Source of the DNA: Neodothiora populina
Lineage: Eukaryota
Direction of reading: 5' to 3'
Assembly (NCBI RefSeq): GCF_041146345.1
Contig: NW_027191415.1
Location: forward strand, 992,001-1,056,000
DNA length: 64,000 bases
Every line of letters starts with the position of its first letter. Positions within the stretch are counted from its first letter, which is position 1. Of the stretch, positions 36,083 through 63,791 are shown in pieces. The notes under the pieces were generated by a model that was not told the origin of the DNA, searched no databases, and saw nothing but the letters and a program-made list of their open reading frames with translations. Position numbers and translations under genes: made by a program.

Positions 36083-38224
36083 TCAATCGATCCAGAAGAT
36101 TTCGTCTCCCTCGGTTTCGCTATCATCTTGACTCTGATCCTCGTGTCGACGATCAGCTTCATATCGTTGATGCTCGTCATCGTCGTCGGTGTTCTCTGCG
36201 TCGTCGTTGTGTTGACCATGTCCAGCTAGCTCTTCGTGTCCCTCGGTATCAAGAACCTCGTAGTACTCGTCTTCATCGTCCCATTGTGGATTGTCTGTAC
36301 GGCGTTCTTCGTCGTCCTCCTCGTCAGAACCAGCAGCAGCAGCGGCGGCGGCAGCGGCAGTCTGAACACGACGACTCCCATGACTCAGTGGAGAGTCGAC
36401 GACGACAGCAGACATGACACAACGATGACCAGTTGCCGCGGACAAAGCGAGAGCATCGCGGCGCGCTCTAGCAGAGTCAATAGCAGTACCAGACGACGAC
36501 CACTCAGACCCCAACCCGATACTCACAGCTTTCCTCTGCATTCTCTTCTCAGCAAGCAAGACGGCATCCCCATCGACCCCTCCTCCCGCACCGCCCACGA
36601 CAGGCCCCATTAGACTCCATCTCAGACCAGCCAGGAAGGCGTCTCCGAGAGCACGCAAACAGGCGTCGTCGACGCGCAGGCGCACACCTGCGTCATTGGT
36701 GATGACATAGGCGAAGAAGCCGGCTAGATGAGCCCATCGAGACGGCGAGTCTGCGTCGAGGGTTATATCCCAGCCCTGGACGACGTCGGAGACGAGCTTG
36801 GTGATCATGAGCGCGGGCGTCAAGGCGGTGGCTCCGAAGAGGAGCAGGAGCGAGGCGAGGCCTTCTGTCACGCGGTGGTCGAGAGATACGGGGGCTTGCT
36901 TGAGGTGTTTGCGCAGCTTGGGCAGGCCGACGCGGTTCGTGCCGATGCAGTCTAGTTGCATGGCTGCGGACATGACGGGGCTGGCGGAGACGTGATGCAG
37001 GAGCTCGTCGATGTGCATGTCGCGTAGGATGGCGGAAGGAGGGATCGTGGCCCAGATTAGGCGTTCGCATTTGCCGACGTAGTTCCAGGCGCCTTTGGTG
37101 AAGACGCGTTTGTTGGTCAGCTCTTTGTGGTATGGAGGTGGGTAGTAGGCGGTGCCGAGTTTCTCGGCGTTGATTAAGCTGATGTGTATGTTTCGTTTAC
37201 CTGCTTGCACGCCTTTCAGAGCGAGACGGATGATCCAGAAGAGCTCTGTGGCAGTGCTGACGAATGGCGACGCGACGGGGTTGCGGTTCATGTGGTTCTC
37301 AATCTCCGAGAACAGGACGGGGTCACTGCAATGTGGAGCTTGTGCGATGGGGCTGTTGCAGGTGATATATCGACCAGCTACGAAGCCTTGGGGTCCGTTC
37401 AAGCCTTGATTGGTGGCATCGTAGCATCGAAAAAGAATCGCAGGTAGAGGAGGATGGGCTTCTTGCTCGGTAATGGTCCTATACTGATAGGACTGATCGA
37501 CATGTTGGCCAATCAGACGAGGTCCAACTCGCACGAAGAGCGGTGGGTCGGGCTTCGGGGTCTGAGCCCTGGCAATTGGGATCTGGCTTTGGATGTGTCG
37601 GTCGATGCTCTGGAGAGGCGAATTATGCGACTTTTTGGCAGAACGCGACGGTTGACGAGCAACACTAGGACGACTTGCAATAGTAGTCTTTGGCCTCACT
37701 GGTGTAGGGGGCGATCTGCCTGCTGGTGACGATAGCGACAGTGATGCCAATTGTGGTAGAACTGGGGATCTGGAGCTTGTGATTCTGCGGATGAGGTCAA
37801 CAAGCTCGGCCTTGCTCTCTGGTGGCATGGGAGTCGTAGTCGCTCTCTGCCATGGTTTGGACATGGGGTCTTTCATTCGTTCATGATACTGTGTAGAGAT
37901 CGTGCTCTTGGGCAATCCCCTATGAAACCCTTTTGCTTGCCAATCATCTGCGAAGAAGACGTTGAAGACTGAGGTAGTTTCTGTCCAAGTCAAGCTGTAT
38001 TCCTCGACAAGGACTATCAATGCCTGGCGGTGGACTATATGCCATGAGAATTTGCACTCATCTCTTCTGTCGTCTGCTCTCTCTACACCTCTCATCCTGT
38101 TCAAATTCTTCATTCTCTGCGTACGTGATATGCTGGGCGACACTGGGTTTGATGGGCGGACGTCATGTAAATCAAAATCATACTGCGGAGGCGCATACGA
38201 GATGCGCGATTTGACTCTTGTCAT
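36083..38224 (-). CDS. Hypothetical protein with a helical N-terminal region, a central ADP-ribosyltransferase-like motif set and an acidic tail
   Basis: Intronless ~710-aa ORF from MTRVKSR. The central LFRCYD...SPFVSTAT...ERLIWATIP pattern recurs in a family of uncharacterised fungal proteins. Confidence 0.7.
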   Translation of the reverse strand: MTRVKSRISYAPPQYDFDLHDVRPSNPVSPSISRTQRMKNLNRMRGVERADDRRDECKFSWHIVHRQALIVLVEEYSLTWTETTSVFNVFFADDWQAKGFHRGLPKSTISTQYHERMKDPMSKPWQRATTTPMPPESKAELVDLIRRITSSRSPVLPQLASLSLSSPAGRSPPTPVRPKTTIASRPSVARQPSRSAKKSHNSPLQSIDRHIQSQIPIARAQTPKPDPPLFVRVGPRLIGQHVDQSYQYRTITEQEAHPPLPAILFRCYDATNQGLNGPQGFVAGRYITCNSPIAQAPHCSDPVLFSEIENHMNRNPVASPFVSTATELFWIIRLALKGVQAGKRNIHISLINAEKLGTAYYPPPYHKELTNKRVFTKGAWNYVGKCERLIWATIPPSAILRDMHIDELLHHVSASPVMSAAMQLDCIGTNRVGLPKLRKHLKQAPVSLDHRVTEGLASLLLLFGATALTPALMITKLVSDVVQGWDITLDADSPSRWAHLAGFFAYVITNDAGVRLRVDDACLRALGDAFLAGLRWSLMGPVVGGAGGGVDGDAVLLAEKRMQRKAVSIGLGSEWSSSGTAIDSARARRDALALSAATGHRCVMSAVVVDSPLSHGSRRVQTAAAAAAAAAGSDEEDDEERRTDNPQWDDEDEYYEVLDTEGHEELAGHGQHNDDAENTDDDDEHQRYEADRRHEDQSQDDSETEGDEIFWID

Positions 38225-39308
38225 GGTGAGGAAACAAAGCAAAGAGATATTAAGGAAGAGACGAACTGTAGAGATGGCCAAAGGGGTGGATGTAGCAGAA
38301 ACAGAAGTGGAGTCAGAGACAGGTGAGCAGAGGGTGGCGCCAAGCCAGTCTATATCAATGGATCTGACAAGATCACCATGGAAGAAGTGAGGTCCCTGAA
38401 CCTGTACTACTTCACGTAACTTTCCCACTTACTTTTGCATTCCAGTTCAAGCTGATGGATGCCTCGTTTTGTTGTGATTACGGTAGTCCATTCGCATCGA
38501 AAGTTGCTAGATAGACCAATACCCGCATCGGAGATCATGCGAATCGTTATCTTGAAGCCGTCTCACACCAGCACGCGATGCACTCACTCAAGCCTCATGC
38601 TATGAAAGCATCGGGGGGATGTTCACAAGACGTAAGCTCGCAAGAAGCCCAGCTGCACCTACACTTGAGCCATGCATGTCACAAGACAAACTCCCGCACC
38701 AGAACTAACCCCGGGCAAAGTCGTAGCCGTTTTTGGAGTCTTGAGCCCGTGTTAGAGGTCTTGTGTATGCGCGGGTATCGACCTCATACTGGCTTCTGAG
38801 TGCTCTTCGAGTCGAGGAGGGGTACTCATGGAGGTCCAAGTCTTGTTGTTCTTTCTCCATCCTATGACATGAAGGTATACGACTAGAAGGCTAGCTGGCA
38901 AACTGCAAGACTCAGATGATAGCAGCTAAGTCCATGAGACAAGACCGAGACCGCACGTGTTTTGTCAGATCTGCCTGGCTGAGTCACCTTACCGTTACCG
39001 GAAGTATCTTAGGAGGCTGGGGCTACCCGGCAAGGCTCTTCACACCGCATCGTCTTTGTATCATTGAGGGACATGTAGGAAGCACATTCAACGACTAAGA
39101 CTGAGGGACACAGAGGAATTAAAGGTATGAGTTCCAGTAAGTGTTATTCCAAAGCTCGACCTCGACCTCGGAGTGACGTCGCGCATCAACAGCGCGGCGA
39201 GCCCTAACCGTCCCTTCCATGACCACGCCTCCGCAATCCCTCCTCGAACAATAATTCCACCAAGGTACCTCTCACCTCAAACGACCCCAACTAACTACCT
39301 TGATCACA

Positions 39309-40806: not shown

Positions 40807-43223
40807 TCATAGCTTGACACCCCAGACTCCTCTGCCACCGACAGCGCCCAGCCAATCGCCACCCTGGCCCGTCAGAGCACTCTGTGGTGCCCAGCTGATG
40901 TTGTTGACCTCGTAGTCGCATCGCCAGCTGGCCGATGGTCCCTTTGCTTGCGAGTCCCCGTGTGCGCTGCCACCATTGACGCCTGTGCTATTGCTGGCGT
41001 TCAAGAGGTCCCAGACCAGGACCAGGGAGTCGTCTGCACCACTGGCGAGCATGCCCCGGCGACTGGGGTTCCATTCGATCGAGTTGAGCGCGGCTGCGTG
41101 ACCTCGTAGCTCCAAAAGAGCAGTGCCTGGCTGTCGCGCGTCGAGGATTCGTATGACGTTGGAATCCGCGGCGAAAGTGGCTAGGAGATGCGCATCGTGA
41201 GGCGAAGCAGCCAGTCGAAGAAGTGGTGGCGCAGTCGACAGTGTATGCGAAGGTTTCGTGGGCGAAGTCGGAACTCCGGGAGGTGATACTGTGAGGTGAA
41301 ACGAGTCAGAGCCGAGTCAATTGTCGAGGAACTTTGTTGCACATACCTTTGTCGACCTTCTCGGTCTTGTCCGACGGCTCATAGATGATGGTACTATGCT
41401 CAAGACTCCGCAGATCGAACATCCTCACGCTACCATCTGCGCCGCAACTCACAAACACGTCGATGCTGCCAGCGCAGAAGCGCACGTCGAAGACTTCTTT
41501 GTCGTGCGCAATCAATTGCGTCTTGGCTGTAAGGGTCGGGATATCCCAGATGGTGCAGGTAGTGTCGATACTGGAGGTGATGATAAGCTTGGGGGACAGA
41601 GTGTTCCAGTCTAGAGAAGTCAAAGGAGCAGTGTGCTCAGGCGTCTTGGAATTCGACAAGAGTGCCAAGGGTTGTAGCTTCTGAGCAACAGGGTCGCGCT
41701 GGTTGACGGCTGACGAGCGGTTGATGTTGTTGCTTATGGCTGATTGATGAGACTGCGGCAGGGACCATAGTCGCAAGTGGTCTCCCGACGTGGCTAGGAG
41801 GTCAGTTGACTGTTTGGACGAGGACGGAGGTTCCCACGATATGCGAGTCACGGGGTACGCGCAGGTGGCCTCGGCGACCTTGACAAAGTCGAGAGCATAA
41901 GGTGGAGCGCCAGGGCTCGTGACTTCTTGGGGTACAACCTGAGTGTCGACGATTTGGATCTTGAAAGAACAAGGTTAGCGTGCAATTGCAGTTGTTCATT
42001 GACAAGCATAAGTCTCTCACAAAGTTATGCGGGTCTTCGAGATAACTGGCCACTGCCATTTTGCCACATCCATTCCCGTTGTGTACAGGCCATTTGCACC
42101 AGTCAAAGGCGTAGGTCGCCCACGGAGCTTGGTAATTGCATTTCGTCTGCGACGGGGGGTGGTCGAAGACGTGATTTGTGCTGTAAGAGTCATGGCTATA
42201 ATCTCCCTGGGTTCTAGGTCTGATATCGGAAAGACCTAGGGGAGAATGTGACATTGCCATGTTGGGCGTCTGAGGACTGTATGACTTTATCGGTGTCGTG
42301 GCAGAGAAGGGAATGTACTTTTGGTCCATGCCAGCAGGACTGGATCTCGAGTGACTGTGTGACGAGCCGAGGGTGGGACGGGCAGAAGGGCTGTACTGTT
42401 GAGCATTGGTGTTGAGGGGAGGCATGGTAGGCACTGTCCTGGACGCCGTGTAAGTTGTCGTCGAGGGCGATCTGCTACTCGAAGCGCCTGTGCCTGTAGC
42501 TGTGCCCGCGCCTGCACCACTGCCCGGTTGCAATATACCTGGCACGTTGGAAGAGTTGGACGAAGTGGGTGAAGTAAAACTTTGGCCCTGAGGAGTTGCT
42601 TGTTGCAGGAGAATGTTTGGGCCCGTCCCTGAAGGGTAACCTTCTTCTCGTGGGGCAGTTGACTGTGAATGCGATTGCGACTGAAGCTGAGCCTGAGACT
42701 GTTGTGATGGCGGCGATGCGTAGGGATTCATTCTCTGGTTGTGTCCAAAGTCACTCAGATGCAGCTCACCAGGACTGCGGTCGTAATCGTGGGCCGACTT
42801 CTTTGGCGTCTCGAAGGCTGGCGCATTCTGCGACAAGCCGCCAGACATTGGCGCTGACCGAGAAGGTAGAGTGAATGTGGGTTGTTGTGATGTCGAAAGC
42901 GTGTTCCTGCTGTCGATGGCGAAACCTGGACCTGCTCCTGCTGTTTTTGGTGCTCCTGCTGTTCTGGGAGCTGCTGCTGCTGTCGCTGTTGCAGTTTTGA
43001 GCCCGAACCTGTCAGAGGGAGTGCGTGTATCAACAACAACCTTAAGCTGGTGCTCGTTAAGGGTATGAGTGCTCGATTGCGACAACGCGGGTTGCGGGGA
43101 TGTGTTGGGTCTGACGCCGAGATTGGGCGACGCGATGGCTCCAAGCGTCTGGCCTCCTTGCAAGATACCCGCCGCCGTACTCCTATCCGATGCTGTTTTC
43201 GTGGGTTTCGTCTTAGACGGCAT
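40807..43223 (-). CDS. WD40 protein of the DCAF7/WDR68/AN11 (YPL247C-like) family with a long disordered N-terminus
   Basis: [62 protein letters not shown] and [20 protein letters not shown]. Two introns. The start codon is uncertain. Confidence 0.9.
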
Positions 43224-43700
43224 GTGGTTCGAGACTCGATTCTTTGGTATGAGTGTGTATGTCCCTTGTTCCAGTCTACCGTCACTCAACTTCTCGATTC
43301 TCGATATGCCTCTCTGTCTAGCTGCAGTCCGGTATCAAGAATCTATAATGAGATATGTCGGGTTTGGCTGGAACGTGTATGGTAAACGCCAAGACCAGTT
43401 CGGCACCCGCTTCAGATGGAGAAAGACTATACCTCTAGCAGCTCGAGTGGATGGTTAGGGTATGATGTAGTTCATCTCGACTGGGCTGCTGAAACAAAGA
43501 ACTCTATATCTCGTCACTGTGCAATATCAAGTGTAGATTGATTCGAAATCGAGGGTTCTTTTCTGGAGGCTCACACAGCTTGATCCGCTCAAAGCGACCT
43601 TCTAATCAGGTGATAATACTTTGCTCAAGTCTACCATAAAATCACATCCACCGCCTGATAAGCAGAACATCAAGGATTCGCGAGCACAAATATCTGCGCC

Positions 43701-44891
43701 ATGGCAGACGGTGCTCCTGCGACCTTTCTGTTGCTTCTTCCTCCTCCCTCCACTGTTTCTGTCTCTGCACTCAAGGCCGCTTATGGTGAAACGCTGTCTG
43801 AAGTGCTCAAGGAAGTCGCATCTGCAACACAAGAAACCGTTCGCCCTGCAGTACTGGACATTGCCTTGGCCATTCCTCATCTTGTTGGCAAAGACACAGA
43901 ACCAAGGGCATCTTTGTACGATCGCACGCAAACCATTATTGCTGCTGTCTACAAGCTCGTTTGTGTGCTCGCCACCGCAGACAACATCAATATTGAGGAC
44001 AGCGATGGCGTTGACGCTCGCATTATACCGATAGCTTGGTCACCGGATGCCACTTCAACTGCAAACTCTCCTTTCGGTCCTGTTGTAGATCTGGTGACCC
44101 TAGCAGGAAGTGGTCGTCAATGGCAGTATGCTTTCGGGGTAGAGACTGATGCTGGTGAAGCCTTTGTCCGAGCCTTTGTCGCGGCCAAGCAGCACGCTTC
44201 TCATGGGCACCACAAGCATTCCAACGTGGAAAAGTCAACGGAAGGTTCAGCATCAAAATATGCCGAGTCAAGTTCAGCACATAAAAAACACCACCATACT
44301 GCGGTTGGTGGCACTTTTGACCATCTCCACCTTGGCCACAAATTACTTCTCACCATGACTGCCTTTGCATTGGATGACAGCAATGGTATCATCACGCTTG
44401 GCATCACAGGGGACGAGTTGTTGAAGAACAAGAAACACGCCGAATACTTGGAGTCCTGGTCTCAACGTCAATCCTCGACATATCAATTCTTGAGTGATAT
44501 CATGGACTTCAATGTTCCAGACTCCAGGAGCCCTGTCGTGGAAGAGGTCAAGAATGACGGACCCAATGGGCATGTAGTCACGGTACGATATGGCAATGCA
44601 CTGGAGTTTAGATTCGTCGAGATCGTAGATCCCTTTGGTCCTACCATCACTGACGAGAGTATCACGAATCTTGTTCTGTCTGGAGAGACTCGCTCTGGCG
44701 GCAAGGCCATCAACGAAAAGCGAGCGGAGAAGGGCTGGTCCGAGTTGCAGGTCTTTGAGGTAGACGTGTTAGATCCGACGAGCGATGCTACGGCTACAGA
44801 GATATCAGACCAATCGAGCTACAAGGACAAATTGAGCAGTAGTGCCATTCGGACCAGACTGGCGGAGAAGAAAGCCAGCCCGACAGCATAA
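43701..44891 (+). CDS. CAB4: Phosphopantetheine adenylyltransferase
   Basis: AVGGTFDHLHLGHKLLL (HxGH), GITGDELLKNK, DPFGPTITDE, SGETRSGGKAINEKR and KLSSSAIR. Confidence 0.9.
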   Translation: MADGAPATFLLLLPPPSTVSVSALKAAYGETLSEVLKEVASATQETVRPAVLDIALAIPHLVGKDTEPRASLYDRTQTIIAAVYKLVCVLATADNINIEDSDGVDARIIPIAWSPDATSTANSPFGPVVDLVTLAGSGRQWQYAFGVETDAGEAFVRAFVAAKQHASHGHHKHSNVEKSTEGSASKYAESSSAHKKHHHTAVGGTFDHLHLGHKLLLTMTAFALDDSNGIITLGITGDELLKNKKHAEYLESWSQRQSSTYQFLSDIMDFNVPDSRSPVVEEVKNDGPNGHVVTVRYGNALEFRFVEIVDPFGPTITDESITNLVLSGETRSGGKAINEKRAEKGWSELQVFEVDVLDPTSDATATEISDQSSYKDKLSSSAIRTRLAEKKASPTA

Positions 44892-45625: not shown

Positions 45626-47151
45626 ATGCCTCCATTCCCAGGAGAAAACCTACTGTTGACCTTGTGCGTTGAGTGAACAGCACTTTTATCACTGTTTCCA
45701 AGTCTAATTACCTGTAGATTCGTTGACGTTCACTACTTTTTCCAACCCCCGACTTCGAAGCCTGCTCATCATCGCTTCGATAGACGCTCTTATCTTTACC
45801 TCTATCAAGATGTGTCTCAGCGACGAGCGAGGATAGAAATCGCAAACTCAGCAGGAACTCCGGATCAGGACTCATTTGACGGATGTAAGTCAGGTCTTTC
45901 CTAGGTTTGTGTCCGTGTCATGATCTGATCAGGATGCGCACAGATCTCGACTCTGTGGTTGTCAAGTACAAGCATCAGCAGTCTAATTCAGTATCCATCG
46001 GAGTTGATGCTCTCGCATCGAGGTCGACAGCGAGTCTGCCTGGTCAATCGCAGTGGCGTATTCCTGCTTATGACCTCCAAAATGCGCAAAAATACTTGTT
46101 CAAACTGCATGCTCTTGACGTCTACTTCTGGACCGCTAGTGACGCATCTCGATTTCTTGAATGCATGAAACGTCTTCTGCCACAGGACCAGCTAGACTTT
46201 GACGAAGGACCGCTCCCTGTCGAACATCGAGATTCAATGAGTCCAGTCGTGGAGAAATTGGAAAATGCAGCTGTTCACACTTCTCCTCGACCACAACCTG
46301 CCACTTACACATTGCCACAAAGGGTTGCGTCGATTTCTCCTCCACAATCGACGCCCTCTTTCGCTCCTTACAATCCAGCCGCCCCTGCGGCACCAGAGCC
46401 TATAGCTTACAGAGAAAAGACGCCTCCTCCTCCCGATGCTGAGGCTGGCACTGGTCTTGTCGGCGTGGCTAATCACGGCAACAATCCACAATCAGTGGCT
46501 CAGCCTCAGCTATCGCATCATTTGTCTTATCAGCAGACTCCCTCGCAGTCGTCATTCCCGGGGCCCCCTCAGCGAAGTGCTAGTTCGCAGTCTGTGCCCC
46601 CTCCTCCCCAATCAACTTCAAATGTAGCGAACATGGGCGCGCCTTACCAGCACGCCAGATACGAGTTATCAGGGCCGTCCTTTGATCTGTCCGCTCGTAG
46701 TCATAACTCGGTCAATGATCCGACACAGTTTACGCACGTTCAGTATGCCAATCACCCACAGCAAAACTACCTTCAATCACCGTCATTTTCCATACAGTCT
46801 CCGGGATTACCAGGCACCCCGAGCGCTCCTCCGCCATACGGTCAGCTGACTCCATTGCAATCCCCTAATGTGCCGGGCGCAGGGTTCCAGAATGCTGGCT
46901 ATTCTGGTCCTCCCGGTCATCCTGTCGGAGGGTATTCCAGCTACACATACGCTTCTCAGTCACAGCATCCGCAAGCTGGAACCGAGTCATACGGTGTCCA
47001 TGACCAGGTCTATCGACCCACGGAGGAAGAAGCGTCTCATGGAAAAATAAAGAAAGCACAGCCTTTCAAGCCGGGAACGTTCGAGGAGAAGGTGGGAAAA
47101 CTGGAGAAAGGCGTGGGAAGGCTACTTCGAAAAATAGATAACAAGATTTAG
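45626..47151 (+). CDS. Conserved fungal protein with a folded N-terminal domain and a Pro/Gln-rich C-terminus
   Basis: MPPFPGENLLLTL|FVDVHYFF..HHRFDRRSYLYLY..IEIANSAGTPDQDSFDG joins the 45907 ORF through two introns. Also MSPVVEKLENAA, YNPAAPAAPEPIAYREKTPPP and VHDQVYRPTEEEA. Confidence 0.75.
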
Positions 47152-53467: not shown

Positions 53468-54106
53468 GAGAGCTTTGATCTTCGACGCGCATAAGCTGGC
53501 GACCGTCATCGAAGAGTCGACAGACTTGTTTGCGCATGGCGTGCGAGTCCCTACCCTCCTCTGCCCGGAATCTGTGACAGGCATATGACTGATGAAGGAT
53601 ACAAGAAAGCGTGTTCATGTCTTTTGGCGAAGAGGTATGCACATATTTGGGTCGATAGTCCAGAGTTATTACGACAGCCTTGGTGTATTAGACACCCTGA
53701 AGACGAGACGATAGAGTTGGAGCTGTGGTCGAGTGTGTGGAAGCGAATTCATGTCGCCCGTTCCAGACCTTGTGGGCGGTCTGGAGGAGAGCAAGTGTCA
53801 AATGATGCTCACGCGGTTAACGAAAAGATACCTTTCCTTTGGGGCCCTTGCGTTGCGGACTTCTTTCCAAGCACTTAATCGTATATTATTCTACAAAGCA
53901 TCTTGTTCGGTGATAAGACTTATGTATTGTCGTCGGCCTCGAACATGAACATGATTGATTTGTGAATTCAATGGAGGCCAGGGTCACGTGGGATTTCCTC
54001 GGCGAACCTTCCTATCTCGAAGCTCGGTACAAGATTCCCATAAACTCCCCCATCAACTTACATTAATTCAGTCCCCATTCTACTTCCACATACACATACA
54101 CACGCC

Positions 54107-55540
54107 ATGGCATTACAACTACGAGACCAGTCCAAGACCAGCACCAAAGGCAAAGTGCCGACCGGATTCGCCGACGAGATCGTCATCAGCGACGCCTCAT
54201 TCCGCCAGGCCCACCGAGCCGTCGAAGCGAACCACGAGCCGCCATCCAAAAAGCGCAAGCGCGAAGGCAAAGGCGACAGCAGCGTAGTCTACGGCGCAGG
54301 CGCATACAAAGGACCATGGGCGAAGTACGAAGAAGAGCGGCCGGACGCAGGCAACGACAGTGATGGATCAGACGTTGAGATAGAAGAAGTCAGCGAGTAC
54401 GAGGAGGACGAGATTGCGCCGAACCCTGTCGCTGCGCCGAGTAAGAAGGGCACGAGTTATGAGGACTTCGGAAACGATAAGGAGACGACGGTGTTTCATG
54501 GTAGTCAGCAGTATGATTACCAGGGCAGGACGTATATGCATGTCCCGCAGGACCTGGATATCGATCTCAAGGGCGATCTGTCGGAGTTGAAGAACTATGC
54601 ACCAAAGAAACTACTGCATACGTGGAAGGACCACACCAAGCCCATCACGCAACTTCGTTTCTTTCCTGATGCAGGACATTTGTTGTTGTCGGCCTCGGCG
54701 GACAGCAAGGTCAAGATATGGGACGTCTACCATCAGCGCGAACTCCTACGCACGTATTCTGGCCACACCAAGTCTGTGGCGGACATATCTTTCAACTACG
54801 ACGGCACGCGCTTCGTTTCTGGCTCCTACGACCGTCAAATGAAGCTCTGGGATACAGAAACGGGAGTGTGCATCTCGCGGTACAGCACCGGAGCCACGCC
54901 GCACGTGATACGCTTCCAGCCTGCTGTATCACAAGCGCACGAGTTCCTTGCGGGTATGAACGACAAGAAGATTGTCCAATTCGACACCCGCACGAATCCC
55001 GCGTCAAACGATGTCGACTTGTCCAAACCCATCCAAGAATACGACCACCATCTGGGCCCCGTCAACACCATCACTTTCTGCGATGAGAACCGTCGCTTCA
55101 TCACAACTTCAGACGACAAGTCCCTCAGAGCCTGGGAATACGGCATCCCAGTCCCCATCAAGTTCATCGCCGAGCCATACATGTTCCCCATGGTGCGCAG
55201 CTCACCTCACCCGAGCGGCAAGTACGTGGCGTTCCAGAGCTCAGACAACCAAATCGTCGTGTACGCATCCACGGAGCGTTTCCGACAGAACCGAAAGAAG
55301 AGTTTCCGCGGCCACAACAACGCCGGCTACGCCATCGATGTGGCCGTGTCGCCTGACGGAGGTATGGTCATGAGTGGCGACAGCGGCGGTTACGTGTGCT
55401 TTTGGGACTGGAAGACGTGTAAGATGTGGCATAAAATCAAAGCTGCAGAGGGCGCCGTCGTCGCTAGTCAATGGCATCCTAGGGAGAGCAGTAAAGTCGT
55501 CACTGGTGCTTTGGACGGTCTCATCAAATACTGGGATTAA
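54107..55540 (+). CDS. PRP17: Pre-mRNA splicing factor Prp17/Cdc40 (WD40)
   Basis: YDYQGRTYMHVP, GHLLLSAS, QEYDHHLGPVNTI, TSDDKSLRAWEY and FRGHNNAGY. The protein ends LIKYWD. Confidence 0.95.
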   Translation: MALQLRDQSKTSTKGKVPTGFADEIVISDASFRQAHRAVEANHEPPSKKRKREGKGDSSVVYGAGAYKGPWAKYEEERPDAGNDSDGSDVEIEEVSEYEEDEIAPNPVAAPSKKGTSYEDFGNDKETTVFHGSQQYDYQGRTYMHVPQDLDIDLKGDLSELKNYAPKKLLHTWKDHTKPITQLRFFPDAGHLLLSASADSKVKIWDVYHQRELLRTYSGHTKSVADISFNYDGTRFVSGSYDRQMKLWDTETGVCISRYSTGATPHVIRFQPAVSQAHEFLAGMNDKKIVQFDTRTNPASNDVDLSKPIQEYDHHLGPVNTITFCDENRRFITTSDDKSLRAWEYGIPVPIKFIAEPYMFPMVRSSPHPSGKYVAFQSSDNQIVVYASTERFRQNRKKSFRGHNNAGYAIDVAVSPDGGMVMSGDSGGYVCFWDWKTCKMWHKIKAAEGAVVASQWHPRESSKVVTGALDGLIKYWD

Positions 55541-55958: not shown

Positions 55959-56687
55959 CTACCTCTTCCCCAATTTGAAAGTCATGGTTTGGTGGCCGTT
56001 CCATCCTTTGTATAACTCGCCTTCTGTGTGTGCTAGGGTGCATAATGCTTGAAGCATCGCTGTAGGCGAAGTACCCTCACCACAACTTCCATCATCGAGT
56101 ACCAACATCGATTCTGCAGCGCTCAGTAACGCATTCCTGCCTTTCTGCCTTATTCTTGTGTTCTCTGACGCAGAAAGAAAGTTCGTCTTCAACAAGCTAT
56201 CGAGACTTTTCACGGCATTTTGGAGCTGTTCCAGTTCGATCTCAAAGTTGTCGGATCGTGTTTGAGCTGGTTCCGAGGGGTCCTCTAGGCTACGACGACG
56301 CGACATATCGATTGTTCTCGAGTCGAGGTTGCTGAAGTGAGATTGATCCTCTTGCGGTTCGCCGCAAGGTGTCATTTCCAAACATAATCCCAGATCTTCT
56401 TCGCGATTGGTAGTGGGGCTTGGAGAATTTGGCAGATCGAGGCTGTTAGATGCATTGTCTCTCGCCGCCTTACATCTCCTGCCCGTGCCATCTTTGGCTT
56501 CTCTACTCCAGTGGTCATGTAATGACCTTATGTTCGCATACCTTTTCCCACAGCCCCACCCCAGGGAAGCTCCTCCACAAGAAACTCGGGATCTGGATCC
56601 CTGATGCACTTCGATTTCATGGCGTCTGCGGACGTCCTGACGCGAGAACGCCCACTTGCAGGTTCCACATCTCAAGGACGCGCCCAT
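55959..56687 (-). CDS. Putative C2H2 zinc-finger protein (5' extent uncertain)
   Basis: CGTCKWAFSRQDVRRRHEIEVH, followed by CGG...GWGCGKRYANIRSLHDHW, a fungal-type second finger. A possible upstream splice acceptor lies at ~56742. Confidence 0.6.
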   Translation of the reverse strand: MGASLRCGTCKWAFSRQDVRRRHEIEVHQGSRSRVSCGGASLGWGCGKRYANIRSLHDHWSREAKDGTGRRCKAARDNASNSLDLPNSPSPTTNREEDLGLCLEMTPCGEPQEDQSHFSNLDSRTIDMSRRRSLEDPSEPAQTRSDNFEIELEQLQNAVKSLDSLLKTNFLSASENTRIRQKGRNALLSAAESMLVLDDGSCGEGTSPTAMLQALCTLAHTEGELYKGWNGHQTMTFKLGKR

Positions 56688-57096
56688 GATCGAGGCAGTG
56701 ATGGAGTCTCCTGGTAAATCAAAGCCAGACGCTTGCCGCCCCCTAGCAAGTGACGGATGATATTCTCAGTGATTTATGCAGGCTTGAAATTTGTATTCAG
56801 AAGAGGATATCAACAAGAACGTGACAATGTTCGATGTTCGTCAAATTCTCGAATTAGAGCCAGGGACTGTCACGGGTGGCCTCAAGCACATTGGCCGAAT
56901 GAAAATCGAATCGCAGTAGACATGCCGGTCAGTTGTGTATATAGAATAGATGCAATATCAATTTCTTGTAATTGTACCAGCAAAGATTCGAGAGAGACGC
57001 TCGAGGAATCCATCTCGCGGTGATCCTGCTCAGATAGAGGTAGATCGTGATTTATAGGCGTAGTGTTGCTGCGATGTAGTTGCCTCATAACGAGTC

Positions 57097-57140
57097 ATCT
57101 GGCGGGATAATCTGGCGGGGTTATCTGGCGGGGTTATCTG
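57097..57140 (+). repeat. 13-bp tandem repeat ATCTGGCGGG(G/A)T(T/A), about 3.4 copies
   Basis: atctggcgggata atctggcggggtt atctggcggggtt atctg. Confidence 0.85.
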
Positions 57141-57948
57141 CCTGGCGACTTTCTGGCAGGCTTTTCTGTTGCACTCTGCCCGGCGACTTTCTGACAGGCT
57201 TCTCTTTCGAGCTGTTCTGGCGGCTGTTCCCATCTCCACCATACATGTACTTGCATGATGTGTAGATGCGTACATGCAGTATCGGGATACAGGACGTCCA
57301 ATAAAGGTCCATCATCATGCAGACGAACACTGTATCAAGACTCTGCACTAAACGGTCCAGGCGGGGGATTAGAAGGAAGATACCGACATCGTGAGGCCTT
57401 TCCCATCCTCTAGTCAGGCATTGTCAGTCCCTCCGATGGTAGTTGGCACAAGTCAAGCGCCACAGACCGAGATTCATTCACCTGCACTACGTAATGGCAT
57501 TTGGGACCTGCGCCCGCCTCACACCAGATCTTCTGGCGTCCGCCTGTACTGATCATACAGCAGGTTCACCTTCTGGTGTGGTCTTCGGAGTGTGGCGTCC
57601 TACTCTAGTGCTGAACCTTCTAGGGTGTCGTTCCTTCTGGTGTATCCCGCCTTCTGGTGTGCTGTTTCTTCAGATATGTCGTCGCTTCTGATTATTCGCT
57701 TCCCCTCTGATGTACCATTTATTCTGAAGTGTCGCCCGTCCTGGTTTGCACGCTGACGGGTTGGTTTCTGGCGGATCACGCAAAATTTGACAGAGTCACT
57801 GGAATTAAAGCAAGTATATATAGACCCCATACTAGTCCCGCAAAATCATGTCTTGTATCCAAACAATCTAGCGGTCCATTTCTAGCAAGCTCTAGAGGGC
57901 CAGACGATATCCGAAACTATCCTAAACCTGCACCTCGTACTTCACTTC

Positions 57949-58107
57949 ATGATGTCCCCGTCAGACATTCTTAACATCATCCTCGGCAGTATCGTAGCTG
58001 CTGACGCCATCATTCGGTTGGGTACGAAAATCGTTCTCATTCGTCACGAAGTGTACTCTGCTCCTAGACAGAGAACCTTGGGGGTAGGGTCTGATATCGC
58101 AGTCTGA
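57949..58107 (+). CDS. Micropeptide family copy 1 (52 aa)
   Basis: MMSPSDILNIILGSIVAADAIIRLGTKIVLIRHEVYSAPRQRTLGVGSDIAV*. TATATATAG at 57815. Paralogous to the ORFs at 59503 and 60712, with mostly synonymous divergence at conserved positions. Confidence 0.7.
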   Translation: MMSPSDILNIILGSIVAADAIIRLGTKIVLIRHEVYSAPRQRTLGVGSDIAV

Positions 58108-59502
58108 GATATCTGGGGTACCCTGGCTGTCTGATATTTGAGTCGGGGCGGTCCAGGTTCATGAAAGTAGAGACAGCTACGAGGGTAAGAGTAATCATCA
58201 AATAGCCCCTCATATACCCATCGCTGACTATTAGCATCTTCAAGCAGGAACAGAGTTAGATCGATTTATACTGGCATCAGCTGCGCTCAAGTACGAAAGG
58301 GCACACTTATGCCACCACGAGTCATTTACGAGTTATGTCGGAGTCATAGGAATGGAGGACCCCGTGTGAGGGCAGGGAAACATGACATCGAGCGCGGTAT
58401 ATAGGAAAGTGAGCGGGCATTGTTGTCGTGAGCTGATGGGGGACATGGTCGAACTTGAGTCTGGAAGATATATTGTAAAGGACTGAGTTATATCATTGCG
58501 CAGATCAGGCGATATAAAGTACACCCACTATGTGACTCGCGAGCCTCACAAAGGTCTCGCATCTCGCCTGAACTTTAGTACGCAAGAAAGTGAATCGTCC
58601 CCCTACCAATATCGGCTTCAAAAAGTGATTAAGAGATATGGTAAAGGCGTTGAATGCTGTGGGCCTACAGTAGTACGCAGATCCCGGTTCTGATTAGATC
58701 GATGAGGTTCATTCGATAATGCTTGTTGTAGAAAGGGTATTTCACGCGGATCATGTGCTTTCACAACACATTCTGGCCAGTGGTATCGGTCGTAACCGGC
58801 TAGAGTTGACACTGAAACCGACGACAAGATCAAGGCTGGCGGCGAGGCACATTTCAGAAGCAAATCTGTATGGACGCAAACACAGTGAACGACTTCATCC
58901 GCATTGAATGAGTGAGAAGTTCCAGTCATGGCGCCTGGAATTTAGCACGACGTGAAGGGGGCGGAGTTGTCGACCATAATTACGGAAGCAATTTGAGCAC
59001 ATCATTGGTAGGAGGCAAAGTTGATGTTGGGGTCGACCACCGTTGCTGCATCGCCACCTCGTGATGGTAATAAGGGCTCAAGGATTAGTGTTCTGTGCAT
59101 TCAAGTCGCTCGGTGTTGGAGCATACTGCATACGACACTCCAGTCCGCAACTAATATCGGCCGATGTTAGACACTTCGCAAGCGGACGGGTAGATCGCCC
59201 TTTGGATTTATATGCGCTATCCCCTCATCCCTGTACGCCACCGGTGGTACCCTGCGAACTCGCCGTAATCCCTGTACGCCAGCTTACTTACGGCTTTTAA
59301 AGGCCGATTATTCTTGTCCGGATACACATTTATTTGGAGGGCCTAGGTAAAGCGATGCGAGATCACATATACAAACACTTCGTTCGTGCCTCCCCATACT
59401 TGCATCACATCTCAACAATTACAGAGCCTAGTGTTCCATCTGTTCAGCTGAAACAGAAGACAAGAGCGTCCTATTGCCTCTACAAAGTCCTCACAATAAA
59501 CC

Positions 59503-59688
59503 ATGTCTCCATCAGTCATCTTGAACACCATAGCCGCTAGCATCATCACCATGGAAGCAATCATTCGACCCGGCTGCGGCATCGCTCGAATCTATCTCGA
59601 CGCACCTACAGCAGGTAGGGCTGTTCAAGATCTGCCATCAAATGCACCACTGTATTTACCTGTCTTCAGTCCAGAAAATCGTCAGTGA
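59503..59688 (+). CDS. Micropeptide family copy 2 (61 aa; stop position changed relative to the other copies)
   Basis: MSPSVILNTIAASIITMEAIIRPGCGIARIYLDAPTAGRAVQ..., with 15 nt differences from copy 3 over the first 112 nt. Confidence 0.6.
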   Translation: MSPSVILNTIAASIITMEAIIRPGCGIARIYLDAPTAGRAVQDLPSNAPLYLPVFSPENRQ

Positions 59689-60711
59689 ATTCTAGAAGAT
59701 AATTCTACATGCAGAGTCGATCACTAATACCTCGTGGCGCGCTTGACAGTATGACCTGCAAACGTAGTCGAGACTAACACTCCGTTCTGTCCATTTTTTA
59801 GCTACCTACAACTCTATGAGCATATTGAGTTCGTGTCAGAAGGTCAAATAGCATCATTCCAGCATCATCATCAGAAAGCGCAAAGTCTACAGAATCATTT
59901 ATAGCATTGCTATCAAGCGTAATCTAATTCAGCCACTGTTATACAGCCTTTATTTGATCAATTGATTAGAAAGTTATCACCGAGTGCACGAGTACTTTCT
60001 GTATCAAATTGTCAAAACACACTACGAACTCTAGTCGCATGGGATCAGTGAGAAACTCGAGTCATGGCGACTAAAGAGTCTTGACACGTCAGGAAGCTGC
60101 TGACGATTGAGCCTGGCTAAGCCACGAGTGGTAGGAGATGTACGCGGAACCGAGTTAAGCTTGTGCCGTCACATTACCACGTGCTAATGGCAGCAATAAA
60201 AGCCCAAGGGTGAGGGTAAAGGTGTCTTGTGGGTTGCTCATGTGTCCATCGCAAAGGTCAGATACTGGGGAGGACTTCGAAGAACCGTAAGCCAGCCTTG
60301 TTCTGTGGAGAGGAATTGCTGCTAGATCGGGTTAGCTTGCGCGCATGGCGGACGCTGAGTGAGCATTCTATTGGTGCGTAGATACAAACTTGCATCATAG
60401 CTGTACGGCGGGATTGTTGCATGAATGCAAGTTGCATATTGCTGCTACGCCACAATTCAGAGGTATCCTTCACCATGTCGCGAGGCGGCATTTGATACAG
60501 AATCGACATTGCTCAAAGGGACAGAAGTGGGCCAACATATGACCACGTTCATATAAGAACAACAGCGTTGCCCGCCCAGTTTTGCATTATACGTCAACAT
60601 ATACAAAGCCTAGTGATTGATCTGTTCATTTGAGACCAAAGTGAAGAAGAACGCGATTACCTTCGAGATACCTCATCTGCTTGACTCAGCCTATCATACG
60701 GAATCTCCACC

Positions 60712-60861
60712 AGGTCCCCCTCCGACATCTTAAACACCATAGCCGCTAGCATCATCGCCCTAGAAGCAATCATAAGACTCGGCTGCGGCATCGCTCGAAC
60801 CTACCGCGACGCACCTACAGCAGCTGCCAGAAGAAACACAGATCCAGATACTGCTGTTTAG
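60712..60861 (+). pseudogene. Micropeptide family copy 3 (49 codons; start codon ATG>AGG)
   Basis: CCACC-AGG followed by SPSDILNTIAASIIALEAIIRLGCGIARTYRDAPTAAARRNTDPDTAV*. There is no in-frame upstream ATG. Confidence 0.6.
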
Positions 60862-61957
60862 ACATTTACCATCAGATATATCACAGTGCCTACTCCATCT
60901 GTGAAACGGTCAGTGTACCTTGTCTGAAACATACCTTAGCTGTACTGTACATGCAGGGTCGATTACTGATTCGTCGTGGCTGAACCAGAAGCATACGTCG
61001 ATAAACGAATCATATCTCTCGGTAACCGGTCAAGCCCTAACTCAGTCCATGTACGGAAAAGGCCAAGCATGGAATCTATCAACAATTACACCCGCCCCAC
61101 CAATGAGACAATTCCCAAGAAATCTCCTACAGTACACGCACATATTCCAGCGCCTCCCTGATATCTGATTGGTCAACTGCTCGGAGAAAACACTTACATC
61201 GCAAGGAACAATGCACGAAAAGGCCCCAATCAAATACAAGCCAAAAGTCAAGTCTATGGGTGAAGTCGGGGAAAGGTAGCTCAGAAAAAGCTTACCTTGC
61301 CTTTGACCACGCTTCCGAACGACGAAACTCCCACCTATCTGCTCGGTCGGGCCGAGGTCCGGGTCGGAAAGGTCCCACACATTATTTGAGCATCGGGGTT
61401 GGTTTTCGTCAGTGGATTAGTGGTCTATTATATATATCCACCTCTGTCTTTCTGTTTTGATTGCTGCTGAGTGGACGCATTTTTCGCTCATGTTTTCGCT
61501 GTTCGACTTGTCTTGATGCTTGTGCTTCGTCTCTGCTGCAGACATGCCTGGAAGAAAAAGATGTCAAGATACCGGCATGAGGGTTTCAACAGCGAGCACC
61601 AGTAGGAACAGAGATCAATTTAATAAAAAATGTTCATCATGATATATTTGGTGGCGATCTAGTCTCTTCTATCGTCCCTTTTTCCCCCTCTACTTCATGA
61701 GACGATTTGCTTCAATAAAGAAAACGCAGATACTACATTAAACCCGGAGCCCCACCAGCGACCCCAGCAACACCTCCGATCTTGGGTACCATTTCTCCGT
61801 GAACCAACTCCCAGCTCATGCCACTCTCGACACTGCCAGGTCTCTGCATGATATCGTTGGTGGAAGTTTCAATAATGGACTCTCCAACAGGAGTGTTGTT
61901 GTTTCTTTCGTAAGACTTCTCTTCGACAACCTCTTCGACTTCGACACCACGAGCATT

Positions 61958-63791
61958 CTAAGCGTGGGGATCAAGGCCGAGGTTCTCCTCAGCAGGCACC
62001 ATGCGGATGGTGTTGGTGTTGCCCATGCCGCCTCTCCATCCTTGCACACAGACGACGGTGTCGCCCTTGGAAAGGATTCCGAGCTTGATGGCGTTGCCAA
62101 TACCCCACTTGAGACGCTTGTCGACATCCTCTTGCCAAGGAGCGGTCTTGAAGTCGGGCTTCTCCTCGTCGTAGTGGAAAGGCCAGACACCACGGTAGAG
62201 GTGGGAGTAGCGGCAAGCATTACCGTTGCGGGAAACCATGATGATGGGGCAAACGGGGCGATACTTGGAGATGAGGCGGGCGGTGCTGCCAGAGGTGGTC
62301 AGGACCAAGATGGCGCCAGCGTTCTGCTCGAGAGAGGCAGAAACGGCGGCCATGGCACAGGTCTCGCTGGTGGCGACAGGGACGGGGGCAAGTCTCCTGA
62401 GCTCATCGAAGGCGTTGACGTAAGGGATGGCGACCTCGGCAAGAAGACAGGTCTCGTGCATCATAGAGACGGCCTCCTTGGGGTAGTTACCCTTGGCGGT
62501 CTCACCGGACAACATGACACAGTCAGCACCGTCGAGGACAGCGTTACCAACGTCAGAAACCTCAGCACGGGTTGGGCGAGGGTTGTAGGTCATGCTCTCA
62601 AGCATCTGGGTGGCGCAAATGGCGGGCTTGCCGGCAAGGTTGCACTTGGTGATCATCATCTTCTGGGCGATGAAGACCTGGGCGGGAGGGATCTCGATAC
62701 CGAGGTCACCACGGGCGACCATGACACCGTCAGTCTCCTTGAGGATGTCGTCAAAGTTGTTGACACCCTGCTGGTTCTCGACCTTGGCGATGATCTGGAT
62801 CTCAGCACCGTCGGGACCAAGGCACTCACGGATGGCCTTGATGTCGTTGCCGGAACGGATGAAAGAAGCAAAGACCATGTTGACCTTGTTCTTGACACCG
62901 AATCTCAGGTCAGCCTTGTCCTTCTCGGAAAGAGGAGGAAGGTCGACGTCAGTTCCGGGAAGGTTGACACCCTTCTTGGAGGAGATCTTGCCGTTGTTGA
63001 TGCAGCGGCACTTGAGGTTCTTGTCGTCGGTGACTTCGAGGACCTCGAATGCGAGGACACCATCATCGACGTAGATGATACGGCCGGGCTGGATGACCTT
63101 GGTGATGTTCTTGTAGTCGACGTACCTGCAGGAGAATGTCAGTAGGAGGCCAACGCACGAAACAGCTTCGAGGAAGGAGCGGGGGAATTGGTGCAGAAAC
63201 GGAAGGTGGGGAATCAAGGACAGGAAAAGAAGAAAGAGCGAAAATGGGCAAGACTAACATGTTCTTGTCGTCGGAAGCAGTGGCATATTGCTCATCAGTG
63301 GTGATGTTGATCTCGGCACCAGCGGCGATGGGGATATCGTCGTTGTTGGTGGTGTTACCGGTACGGATCTCGGGGCCCTTGGTGTCAAGAGCAATGGCAA
63401 TGGGACGACCGGGCTGGGTCCTCTCGGCCTCACGGGCGTTGTCAATGACAGACTGGTGGTACTCGTATGAGCCGTGGGAGAAGTTCATGCGGACAACGTT
63501 AAGACCAGCTACATCGCCCAGGGGATTAGCAAAGAAAGGCCCCCCACCTCACCAAATTCCGACTTACCAGTTCTGAGCATGTTAATCTTCTCAGGGGAGT
63601 TGGTCTTGGGACCTGTAGGAACTCATTAGTACCAATGCGCCGTATTCCGTGCCTGTCAGGGACAACTTACCAATGGTGCAGATAATGGAAGTGCGGCGGA
63701 ACTGCCTCTTTGGCTTGTACTGAGTGGTGAGCTGAGACAGCCATTCTATTCTGGTCCTGCCAGAGTTGAGGTGGGCGAGTGCGTCAGCCAT
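61958..63791 (-). CDS. PYK1: Pyruvate kinase
   Basis: [65 protein letters not shown] and MLSGETAKG. Three introns. Confidence 0.98.

Follow-up and report, generated by a model that had tools for sequence, protein, structure and literature searches.

A diverged family of three ~50-codon frames beside a fungal pyruvate kinase gene: past selection on the peptide and one intact copy

The window analysed here, a stretch of DNA of 64 kb, carries long ORFs of a housekeeping character (NMT, EF-G, ribophorin II, PIG-M, translin, aldehyde dehydrogenase, NAPRTase, syntaxin, WD40 and pyruvate kinase), together with a 5-kb gap that has a C2H2-like gene on one side and pyruvate kinase on the other. This gene-poor and otherwise empty-looking gap in an ascomycete-like fungus holds three diverged frames of ~50 codons; ORFs of fewer than 100 codons are routinely omitted from fungal annotations. 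The locus raises the question of whether these frames are, or once were, genes, and what kind of product they would encode. The three copies (c1–c3 in pairwise comparisons) are:

57949..58107, plus strand: copy 1, an ATG-to-stop ORF of 52 codons
59503..59688, plus strand: copy 2, an ATG-to-stop ORF of 61 codons
60712..60861, plus strand: copy 3, a homologous frame of 49 codons that ends D-T-A-V, then TAG

Homology of the three frames is demonstrated by tblastn, with 50% identity over 40 aa for c1-c3 (E 2.3e-7), 49% over 39 aa for c1-c2 (E 1.9e-5) and 68% over 47 aa for c2-c3 (E 5.8e-15); a fourth copy was not found by tblastn in the 64-kb window, where the next best matches have E values of at least 0.03. 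Amongst 102 stop-to-stop frames of at least 35 aa from positions 56800-61950, none gave a Pfam match below E 0.018, no transposase or reverse-transcriptase match was obtained in any frame of this range, and neither an Rfam family nor a tRNA was found at the interval, the single miRNA match (E 0.88) being at chance level. Judged by these Pfam, Rfam and tRNA searches, no other gene appears to account for the interval.

Comparison of copies 1 and 3 over their first 26 codons reveals 5 identical codons, 12 that differ synonymously and 9 replacements. An earlier note on this DNA had given 18 of 26 shared residues, having taken the start of copy 3 as M; the actual count is 17, whilst its figure of 12 residues encoded through differing synonymous codons holds. 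Although 33 of the 78 bases differ, 17 of the 26 residues are the same: random placement of the same 33 base changes retained a mean of 7.8 and a maximum of 15 residues, with 0 of 20000 runs reaching 17. The differences are distributed over codon positions 1/2/3 as 8/7/18. The pN/pS ratio was 0.32–0.39 for c1-c3 (one-sided Fisher p 4e-6 to 9e-6), 0.45–0.49 for c1-c2 (p 0.001–0.003) and 0.24–0.32 for c2-c3 (p 0.008–0.015), values that carry an ascertainment bias, the three-copy family having first been noticed through peptide similarity; since the c2-c3 ratio is still this low, constraint persisted well after the younger duplication. Copy 1 was recovered from copies 2 or 3 by tblastn and not by blastn. 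The proposal that selection acted on the peptide and not on the DNA is thus supported by the tblastn-only detection of copy 1, the distribution over codon positions, the significant pN/pS of all three pairs and a conservation that is higher in the sense than in the antisense frame. Purifying selection evidently acted on the sense frame in the past, a result drawn from three paralogues only, since homologues were not found in the other genomes or protein sets searched.

Codon usage points in the same direction for the conserved part, with log-odds of 0.21, 0.35 and 0.34 for the opening 31 codons of the three copies, compared with means of 0.31 in true genes of the window and -0.09 in 272 small ORFs. 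Scores for the whole ORFs are only moderately coding-like (top 17%, 7% and 2% of small ORFs), and their GC3 is 0.44–0.55 versus 0.66 in the genes of the window. Two of the six frames, the sense and one antisense, are open in all copies. The start position is common to c1 and c3, which also stop at the same aligned codon after D-I-A-V (then TGA) and D-T-A-V, respectively, the shared ending noticed earlier; the length difference between copies 2 and 3 is an in-frame 24-nt (8-codon) deletion in copy 2, and a comparison of unit 1 with units 2/3 in all frames shows no conservation outside the ORF. From the common start and end, the in-frame difference and the conservation of the ORF alone, the whole ORF appears to be ancestral.

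Copy 1 is the only fully intact ORF of the three. It opens with ATG ATG (51 codons counted from the second Met) and keeps start, frame, helix and stop despite synonymous sites that are saturated relative to copies 2 and 3. Copy 2 shows the replacements D5V, A16T and L23P relative to copies 1 and 3, of which L23P is helix-breaking, and reads CAA at the stop position common to copies 1 and 3, resulting in 12 extra codons. In the case of copy 3, the consensus Met start ascribed to it is not borne out: the codon at 60712 is AGG (context CACC), an in-frame TGA lies at 60682, no ATG follows between 60682 and 60712, and there is no Met in the 49 codons. As written, copy 3 is for these reasons not an ORF with a start, and it is absent from the list of ATG-started ORFs; beginning with AGG and lacking any in-frame Met, it is a probable recent pseudogene, and its lineage-specific replacements number only two in 31 codons (M1R and I30T). 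The description of the locus as three micropeptide genes is therefore correct as far as three homologous frames are concerned, but overstated with regard to copy 3, without a start, and copy 2, with L23P, the 8-codon deletion and a lost stop.

As DNA, copies 2 and 3 are 87% identical over 115 nt and are accompanied by diverged flanking blocks. The ORF block of units 2 and 3 is 82–87% identical versus 72–76% for the alignable flanks, a difference that points to constraint on the ORF. Units 2 and 3 form a tandem duplication that repeats at ~1.2 kb (offsets 1136–1242 nt) and whose left edge is marked by the first of these blocks:

58899..58939, plus strand: distal upstream block of unit 2, 76% identical over 41 nt to 60035-60075
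59387..59465, plus strand: leader/promoter-proximal block of unit 2, 72% identical over 79 nt to its unit 3 partner
60569..60647, plus strand: leader/promoter-proximal block of unit 3, the partner of 59387-59465

The TATA-like elements that the earlier note had placed ~135–160 nt upstream of the copies were seen at 134, 136 and 161 nt:

57815..57823, plus strand: TATA-like element of unit 1, TATATATAG, 134 nt upstream of the ATG
59367..59375, plus strand: weak TATA-like element of unit 2, ATATACAAA, 136 nt upstream of the start
60551..60559, plus strand: TATA-like element of unit 3, ATATAAGAA, 161 nt upstream of the copy 3 start position

Between TATA-like element and start, the leaders of units 2 and 3 are ATG-free, and that of unit 1 contains one ATG (57848).

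AlphaFold (AF2), with a model built on the 3-sequence alignment, predicts a single helix for residues 3–36 followed by a disordered tail, with pLDDT values over the first 30 residues of 94/97/92 and of <50 in the tail, and Kyte-Doolittle hydropathy, averaged over the best 19-residue stretch, is 1.84, 1.62 and 1.92. The hydrophobic/amphipathic N-terminal helix proposed earlier is thus borne out by prediction alone, namely AF2 and hydropathy. The helix contains charged residues, and its insertion into a membrane is argued from hydropathy only; conserved within it are an acidic D/E18 and, one helical turn later, R22. In these three sequences, the first 24–31 residues are conserved and the tail is variable, with the D-[I/T]-A-V end shared by copies 1 and 3.

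Pfam-A hmmscan of the three peptides and a PDB profile search each returned nothing at E <= 10, and a word-based search of 5.8 billion clusters (near and longer length classes) yielded no relative. Two matches from a profile search of 1.84 billion representatives were rejected, both being long repeat proteins matched only through a single 17-residue stretch that occurs in them 8 and 6 times; for a profile of 49 positions, 50%-identical relatives are out of reach at E 0.001 in a library of this size, and small ORFs are rarely annotated. In a metagenome scan 0 of 170 pattern matches were confirmed, and no relative of the peptide was present in 80 fungal pyruvate kinase contigs from metagenomes (749 kb); these contigs lack the left-hand neighbours, so none is syntenic, the sole match of the neighbour search being one weak WD-repeat (L074). 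The best ESM Atlas score of copy 1 (0.80) is at chance level and copy 2 gave no usable named match, and a literature search with two peptide motifs gave no match. Within the sets searched, the family appears to have no detected homologue outside a narrow lineage.

The explanation that we prefer, holding it about as firmly as we doubt it, is that of a lineage-restricted family of small protein-coding units, grown in tandem and subject to birth-and-death evolution, with a single-helix product that is probably membrane-associated. The ancestral unit would have comprised ~50 codons, preceded by a TATA-like element of its own and a leader without ATG, and the family would have expanded through tandem duplication and now be undergoing birth and death: copy 1 would be the intact member, copy 3 a member with an almost unchanged peptide that lost its start (ATG to AGG), and copy 2 one that kept its start whilst acquiring L23P, the 8-codon deletion and read-through of the old stop. 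The product would be one long N-terminal helix (residues 3–36), the conserved first ~25 residues of which may be hydrophobic enough for a place in or on a membrane, followed by a probably fast-evolving, disordered and mildly basic tail ending D-[I/T]-A-V. Such a micropeptide could associate with membranes through its single helix, as a signal-anchor or as an in-plane amphipathic helix; the activity would then lie in the conserved helix, leaving the tail free to vary. Transcription, translation, membrane association and any activity of the units are our inference. With a single fully intact copy left out of three, the family may be dying out. Should copy 1 prove to be expressed, it would represent a new single-helix micropeptide family, and the array would be a small natural birth-and-death experiment with one intact, one altered and one start-less copy; if it is not, the locus is an example of a coding signature outliving function. 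For the gap in fungal annotation, the locus indicates that three paralogues alone suffice for a clean coding signature of an unannotated 50-codon frame.

Amongst known systems, orphan small-ORF genes encoding single hydrophobic helices, such as yeast proto-genes and emerging membrane peptides, share with the present frames a length of ~50 codons, one predicted hydrophobic helix, the lack of a detected homologue and an intergenic position between conserved genes, whereas the saturated synonymous sites between paralogues, the purifying selection and the tandem array set the present family apart. Pmp3/UPF0057 proteolipids (PF01679; 52–57 aa, two transmembrane helices) are similar in size and in their hydrophobic N-terminal segment, but the peptides here have no Pfam match, one predicted helix instead of two and a polar, disordered tail.

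Against this preferred reading stands first the possibility, unlikely though deserving serious weight, that all three units are relics of a once-selected small gene or gene fragment that was duplicated and is decaying in every copy, with nothing functional today. The missing start of copy 3, the L23P, D5V and A16T replacements, deletion and lost stop of copy 2, the lack of a relative in the databases searched and a whole-ORF GC3 below that of the window's genes all agree with such a decay, but copy 1 has kept start, frame, helix and stop at saturated synonymous divergence, the c2-c3 pN/pS extends constraint well past the younger duplication, and copy 3 has acquired just M1R and I30T within 31 codons.

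Rather improbable is that the conserved 26–38 codons belong to a longer gene, as its first exons or as duplicated fragments of its 5' end, with the other exons located downstream or at another place in the genome; one candidate would be the HeLo-like/SesA-type domain at the N-terminus of a fungal NLR. STAND N-terminal domains often have a similar small/hydrophobic first helix and a D-A-P motif near residue 33, which is a lead for this possibility and not a test of it. The hydrophobic helix starting directly after the Met agrees with it, as do intron-like signals just past each ORF:

58185..58234, plus strand: intron-like segment of unit 1 (GTAAGA ... GCTGACT ... TAG), 50 nt, beginning 77 nt past the stop, on the basis of consensus signals only
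59681..59749, plus strand: intron-like segment of unit 2 (GTCAGT ... CACTAAT ... CAG), 69 nt, with a donor that overlaps the stop codon
60909..60988, plus strand: intron-like segment of unit 3 (GTCAGT ... TACTGAT ... CAG), 80 nt, beginning 47 nt past the stop

These 3' segments are putative introns. Units 2 and 3 share a branch-site block with 85% identity over 33 nt, and a 12-nt branch-site pattern has 3 matches in the window versus 0.18 expected, which, with the pattern built from these same three sites, shows only its absence elsewhere in the window. A simple small gene would not normally have an intron-like segment past its stop, which counts against our preferred explanation. Enumeration of donor, branch and acceptor sites for a longer spliced gene gave at most 80–106 codons for copies 1 and 2, in models that share nothing between the two copies, and none for copy 3, and this candidate was rejected. 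Against first exons speak further that c1 and c3 stop at the same aligned codon, that unit 1 and units 2/3 share no second conserved coding block, and that the peptides have neither a Pfam nor a PDB profile match at E <= 10, the frames of the interval likewise being without a Pfam match below E 0.018 and none of their matches belonging to a STAND N-terminal family. Of the 99 ORFs of at least 130 aa in the window, none has a NACHT, NB-ARC, HET or HeLo match at E <= 1e-5. The earlier note's suggestion of a likeness to HeLo-like or NLR N-terminal domains hence found no support, neither from Pfam or PDB nor from an NLR-type gene among these 99 long ORFs, and kinship is not demonstrated, because Pfam, PDB, protein-database and metagenome searches gave no relative. 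What is shared with HeLo (PF14479) and with the HeLo-like/SesA domains of fungal NLRs (PMC4986451) is a hydrophobic/amphipathic helix straight after the Met and the fungal setting; a membrane-targeting role of the peptides is conceivable. HeLo is described in that source as a pore-forming N-terminal domain, which counts in favour of this possibility. The domain is a helical bundle of >100 residues, whereas the peptides comprise 49–61 residues with one helix and have no profile match. The setting also differs, as the three-copy locus has no NLR, amyloid motif or partner gene nearby.

The units could be standalone "mini-effector" genes, in which a conserved membrane-inserting helix is joined to a hypervariable tail. 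They would encode either a self-contained pore-forming or toxin-like peptide, with an action like that of the first helix of HeLo-type cell-death domains, or a new ascomycete precursor-peptide family; in either case birth and death would maintain the diversity of the array, next to a core metabolic gene. We regard this as speculative and give it a low probability.

The remaining frame that is open in all three copies runs in the opposite direction:

59412..59582, minus strand: antisense ORF over copy 2, with partners at 57942-58040 and 60657-60791

That these antisense ORFs are the selected frame and the plus-strand ORFs their shadow is very improbable. The antisense frame is open in three of three copies, with copies 2 and 3 both opening M-P-Q-P, and as third codon positions are common to sense and antisense, wobble bias is unable to separate the two; the shared wobble positions, however, are also the reason why the antisense ORFs are open. 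Over the old split between copy 1 and copies 2 and 3, 15 and 17 of 25 residues are conserved in the sense frame versus 11 and 11 of 25 in the antisense frame, which is therefore read as a by-product. Antisense codon scores are -0.05 to 0.09, copy 1 lacks the conserved antisense start and stop, and it is the plus strand that fits the TATA-like elements and intron-like signals.

Still more doubtful is a role as precursors of ribosomally made processed peptides (RiPPs), with a conserved leader, a variable core and a D-[I/T]-A-V follower. Paralogues in tandem with a conserved head, a variable tail and the last four residues kept in copies 1 and 3 agree with this; given three sequences, the pattern of head and tail also fits a structured helix with a disordered tail. 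Against it, the conserved part is itself a predicted structured helix. No candidate processing or modifying enzyme occurs among the housekeeping long ORFs of the window (prolyl oligopeptidase, DUF3328 and methyltransferase are absent from the matches listed for them), and the sequences show neither a signal peptide nor a repeat pattern of the Kex2 type. MSDIN-type genes, the precursor peptide families of mushroom cyclic peptides, likewise comprise small paralogous ORFs in which the N-terminal part is conserved and the part downstream of it varies; unlike these, the present peptides show no sequence likeness past the first residues, have a long helix as their conserved part and lie in an ascomycete-like housekeeping region with no prolyl oligopeptidase gene nearby.

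That the similarity is one of repeated non-coding DNA or of part of a transposon, with ORFs open by chance, is scarcely tenable: units 2 and 3 are indeed a plain tandem DNA duplication with diverged flanks, but copy 1 is detectable as protein and not as DNA, 0 of 20000 simulations match the observed residue identity, no frame has a transposase or reverse-transcriptase match and no terminal repeats were found flanking the units. RIP-like mutation between units 2 and 3 was rejected as well, there being no transition excess (26 transitions and 30 transversions over four blocks).

The array represents an orphan family of micro-ORFs that is unannotated and has one intact member; it lies in a gap of about 5 kb between an ORF with a C2H2-like motif and the end of a pyruvate kinase gene. 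The surroundings are a gene-dense fungal housekeeping region: Pfam matches among the 99 long ORFs of the window include N-myristoyltransferase, EF-G, ribophorin II, PIG-M, translin, aldehyde dehydrogenase, NAPRTase and syntaxin. The earlier note had called the interval apparently empty, which was borne out, as it holds no long ORF, no tRNA, no Pfam match below E 0.018 among 102 stop-to-stop frames of at least 35 aa, and nothing in Rfam better than chance. The ORF on the left side of the gap lacks a Pfam match at E ≤ 1e-5, and its counterpart is absent from all 80 fungal pyruvate kinase loci that we took from metagenomes. The features are as follows:

54044-55537, plus strand: WD40 protein (Pfam)
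55962-56765, minus strand: ORF bordering the gap on the left, its translation showing a C2H2-like motif
57942-58040, minus strand: antisense ORF of copy 1
57949-58107, plus strand: copy 1, ATG-to-stop ORF of 52 codons
58185-58234: putative intron-like segment of unit 1 (consensus signals), 77 nt after the stop
59412-59582, minus strand: antisense ORF of copy 2
59503-59688, plus strand: copy 2, ATG-to-stop ORF of 61 codons
59681-59749: putative intron-like segment of unit 2 (consensus signals), overlapping the stop
60657-60791, minus strand: antisense ORF of copy 3
60712-60861, plus strand: copy 3, related 49-residue peptide with AGG as first codon
60909-60988: putative intron-like segment of unit 3 (consensus signals), 47 nt after the stop
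61961-63548, minus strand: pyruvate kinase (Pfam)

Three small ORFs had been reported here; copies 1 and 2 indeed run from ATG to stop and the frame of copy 3 is related to them, but where copies 1 and 2 carry ATG, copy 3 begins with AGG (CACC context). This frame has an in-frame TGA at 60682, no ATG from there to 60712 and zero Met, and copy 3 is absent from the list of ATG ORFs. The start codon of copy 3 is the single factual error in an observation that is otherwise largely right: the count of 18 identical residues among the first 26 of copies 1 and 3 stands apart from the first codon (17/26), and the common D(I/T)AV end is real, with D-I-A-V-TGA of copy 1 aligning with D-T-A-V-TAG of copy 3. 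At the aligned stop position copy 2 has CAA, and its frame runs 12 codons further. The next best matches in the 64-kb window have E ≥ 0.03, and the window is therefore without a fourth copy.

Pairwise comparison of the three copies (pN/pS from Nei-Gojobori counts; Fisher p one-sided)
Copies 1 and 3: identity 50% over 40 aa, E 2.3e-7; pN/pS 0.32-0.39, p 4e-6 to 9e-6
Copies 1 and 2: identity 49% over 39 aa, E 1.9e-5; pN/pS 0.45-0.49, p 0.001-0.003
Copies 2 and 3: identity 68% over 47 aa, E 5.8e-15; pN/pS 0.24-0.32, p 0.008-0.015

Purifying selection is present in all three pairs, and the proposal that selection acted on the peptide rather than on the DNA, now quantified (pN/pS 0.24-0.49), proved sound. 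Over codons 1-26 of copies 1 and 3, 5 codons are identical, 12 differ synonymously and 9 are replacements, with 33 of 78 bases different (8, 7 and 18 at codon positions 1, 2 and 3). When 33 random changes were placed on the same 78 bases, identical residues averaged 7.8 with a maximum of 15, and the observed 17 was reached in 0 of 20000 trials. Several lines agree that the frame codes, or formerly coded, for a peptide, and past coding selection on the plus-strand frame is highly probable; the three frames are read as a lineage-restricted small-protein family.

Units 2 and 3, each comprising a frame with its flanking elements, form a tandem DNA duplication whose homologous blocks are gap-free at offsets of 1136-1242 nt, the outermost being 58899-58939/60035-60075 and 59700-59740/60942-60982. 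Identity between them is 82-87% in the ORF block and 72-76% in those flanks that can be aligned. The flanks have thus diverged as far as the synonymous sites of the ORF (pS 0.26-0.34), and change at its replacement sites has been restrained. A transition excess was not found between these units, hence there is no sign of RIP. Unit 1 is much older than this split; synonymous change has reached saturation between it and units 2 and 3, and a six-frame comparison with them revealed nothing in common except the ORF. Polarising changes over the first 31 codons with copy 1 as outgroup (one site ambiguous) assigned D5V, A16T and L23P to the copy 2 lineage, and M1R and I30T to that of copy 3, which has therefore preserved its peptide well, the loss of its start being probably recent. 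Copy 2 retains its start, but its conserved helix has acquired a proline, 8 codons are deleted and the stop is lost. Only copy 1 keeps every feature intact. The likeliest rival explanation is that all units are relics only: the damage to copies 2 and 3 is in keeping with it, while the integrity of copy 1 argues against it, and we see even chances that at least copy 1, as a putative gene, works today.

A second rival holds that the conserved codons are an exon or fragment of a longer gene, possibly of STAND type. In its favour, each unit has an intron-like segment, recognised by its GT donor, CTRAY-type branch site and YAG acceptor, and units 2 and 3 agree at 85% over 33 nt in the branch-site block. 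However, the spliced models enumerated from each start did not exceed 80-106 codons in copies 1 and 2, mutually dissimilar, and none was found for copy 3: the possibility raised earlier, that these are first exons of longer spliced genes, yielded no common longer product among the enumerated models. Copies 1 and 3 have start and stop positions in common, the 24-nt length difference between copies 2 and 3 is in-frame, and the tail of copy 1 resembles the longer form in copy 3; these three points indicate a full-length unit of about 50 codons, rather than a first exon alone, that is older than the oldest split. The TATA-like element claimed upstream of each copy is there (134, 136 and 161 nt from copies 1, 2 and 3), and from this element to the start no ATG interrupts the leader in units 2 and 3, that of unit 1 having one, at 57848.

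As to the product, AlphaFold2 with a 3-sequence alignment as input predicted one helix for copy 1, at residues 3-36, with mean pLDDT of 94, 97 and 92 in the first three ten-residue blocks and below 50 from about residue 40 onwards, in the tail. Over 19 residues, Kyte-Doolittle means peak at 1.84, 1.62 and 1.92, around 1.6, the usual mark for membrane segments, and the hydrophobic N-terminal helix proposed in the earlier note is thereby also predicted here. Invariant in the three copies are S2, P3, S4, I6, L7, N8, I10, S13, I14, A19, I20, I21, R22 and G24, with D or E at position 18. The conserved helix would associate with a membrane, as a signal-anchor or in-plane amphipathic helix; the short disordered tail would be free to vary, and the array would turn over via duplication and loss. 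Given expression, we consider this predicted membrane mechanism evenly balanced between right and wrong. A third rival, rated very unlikely, takes the peptides to be precursor peptides.

The three peptides matched no Pfam family and their profile no PDB chain (both at E ≤ 10), and word-based searches of 5.8 billion protein clusters, in near and longer length classes, gave no relative. In metagenomes, 170 matches to the two most conserved peptide patterns came up, and none of them was confirmed. Among 1.84 billion representatives, the profile picked out two proteins, 1040 and 1097 aa long, which were rejected as a repeat-summed artefact: the match is one 17-residue stretch only, repeated 8 and 6 times. 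In a search for the orthologous gap, the 80 pyruvate kinase loci (749 kb in total) included none syntenic on the relevant side, the sole neighbour match being a weak WD-repeat match in one locus (L074); neither tblastn nor an HMM search run without filters on 10180 frames (best E 3.5) revealed a relative in them. As evidence of absence, such negative results are weak: with its 49 positions, the profile cannot recover relatives of 50% identity at E 0.001 from a library as large as the 1.84 billion representatives, and annotation seldom includes small ORFs. PMC4986451 describes HeLo as an N-terminal domain that forms pores, and HeLo-like and sesA domains as frequent N-termini of NLRs; the only feature of these found here is the predicted hydrophobic N-terminal helix. 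Kinship with such helices is unsupported by the profile and relative searches, and the idea therefore stays a resemblance.

The antisense frame was also considered as the coding one, since it is open in all three copies and shares wobble positions, so that third-position bias cannot separate the strands. Across the old split (unit 1 versus units 2 and 3), however, the sense frame keeps 15/25 and 17/25 residues against 11/25 and 11/25 for antisense; the first 31 sense codons have codon-usage log-odds of 0.21, 0.35 and 0.34 (true-gene mean 0.31), compared with -0.05 to 0.09 for the antisense ORFs (mean of 272 small ORFs -0.09), and a conserved start and stop occur in the sense frame only. The plus-strand frame is therefore taken as the selected one. 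That the similarity is a non-coding repeat fits the duplicated units 2 and 3 at best: sensitive blastn gave DNA-level matches for copy 2-copy 3 pairs only and never for copy 1, whose match to the others is strong at the protein level.

Within the gap, the stretch from unit 1 to unit 2 also contains a 107-codon open frame (58621-58941, minus strand). Block 58899-58939, shared with unit 3, overlaps the start region of this frame, but in unit 3 the corresponding frame runs into a stop within a few codons; the single Pfam match of the 107-codon frame (E 0.08) is at chance level. Short tandem repeats are found at 57094-57205, in the stretch from the C2H2-like gene to unit 1, and may belong to the promoter of that gene, which is on the minus strand; they comprise a 13-nt period (TCTGGCGGG-type, three overlapping copies) at 57094-57145 and a 31-nt pair, 90% identical and 38 nt apart, at 57137-57167 and 57175-57205. 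Elsewhere in the window, four open frames have no Pfam family at E ≤ 1e-5: 15637-19581 (plus; 1315 codons, uninterrupted), 41805-43334 (minus; 510), 43662-44888 (plus; 409) and 45889-47148 (plus; 420). The 781-codon frame at 36086-38428 (minus) has DUF7587 as its single Pfam match (E 2.9e-33). Many long fungal contigs that carry pyruvate kinase (L001-L080, up to 549 kb) occur in metagenome collections, those of JGI among them; they are 64-91% identical in protein to the last exon of the window and can serve in synteny checks on other window genes.
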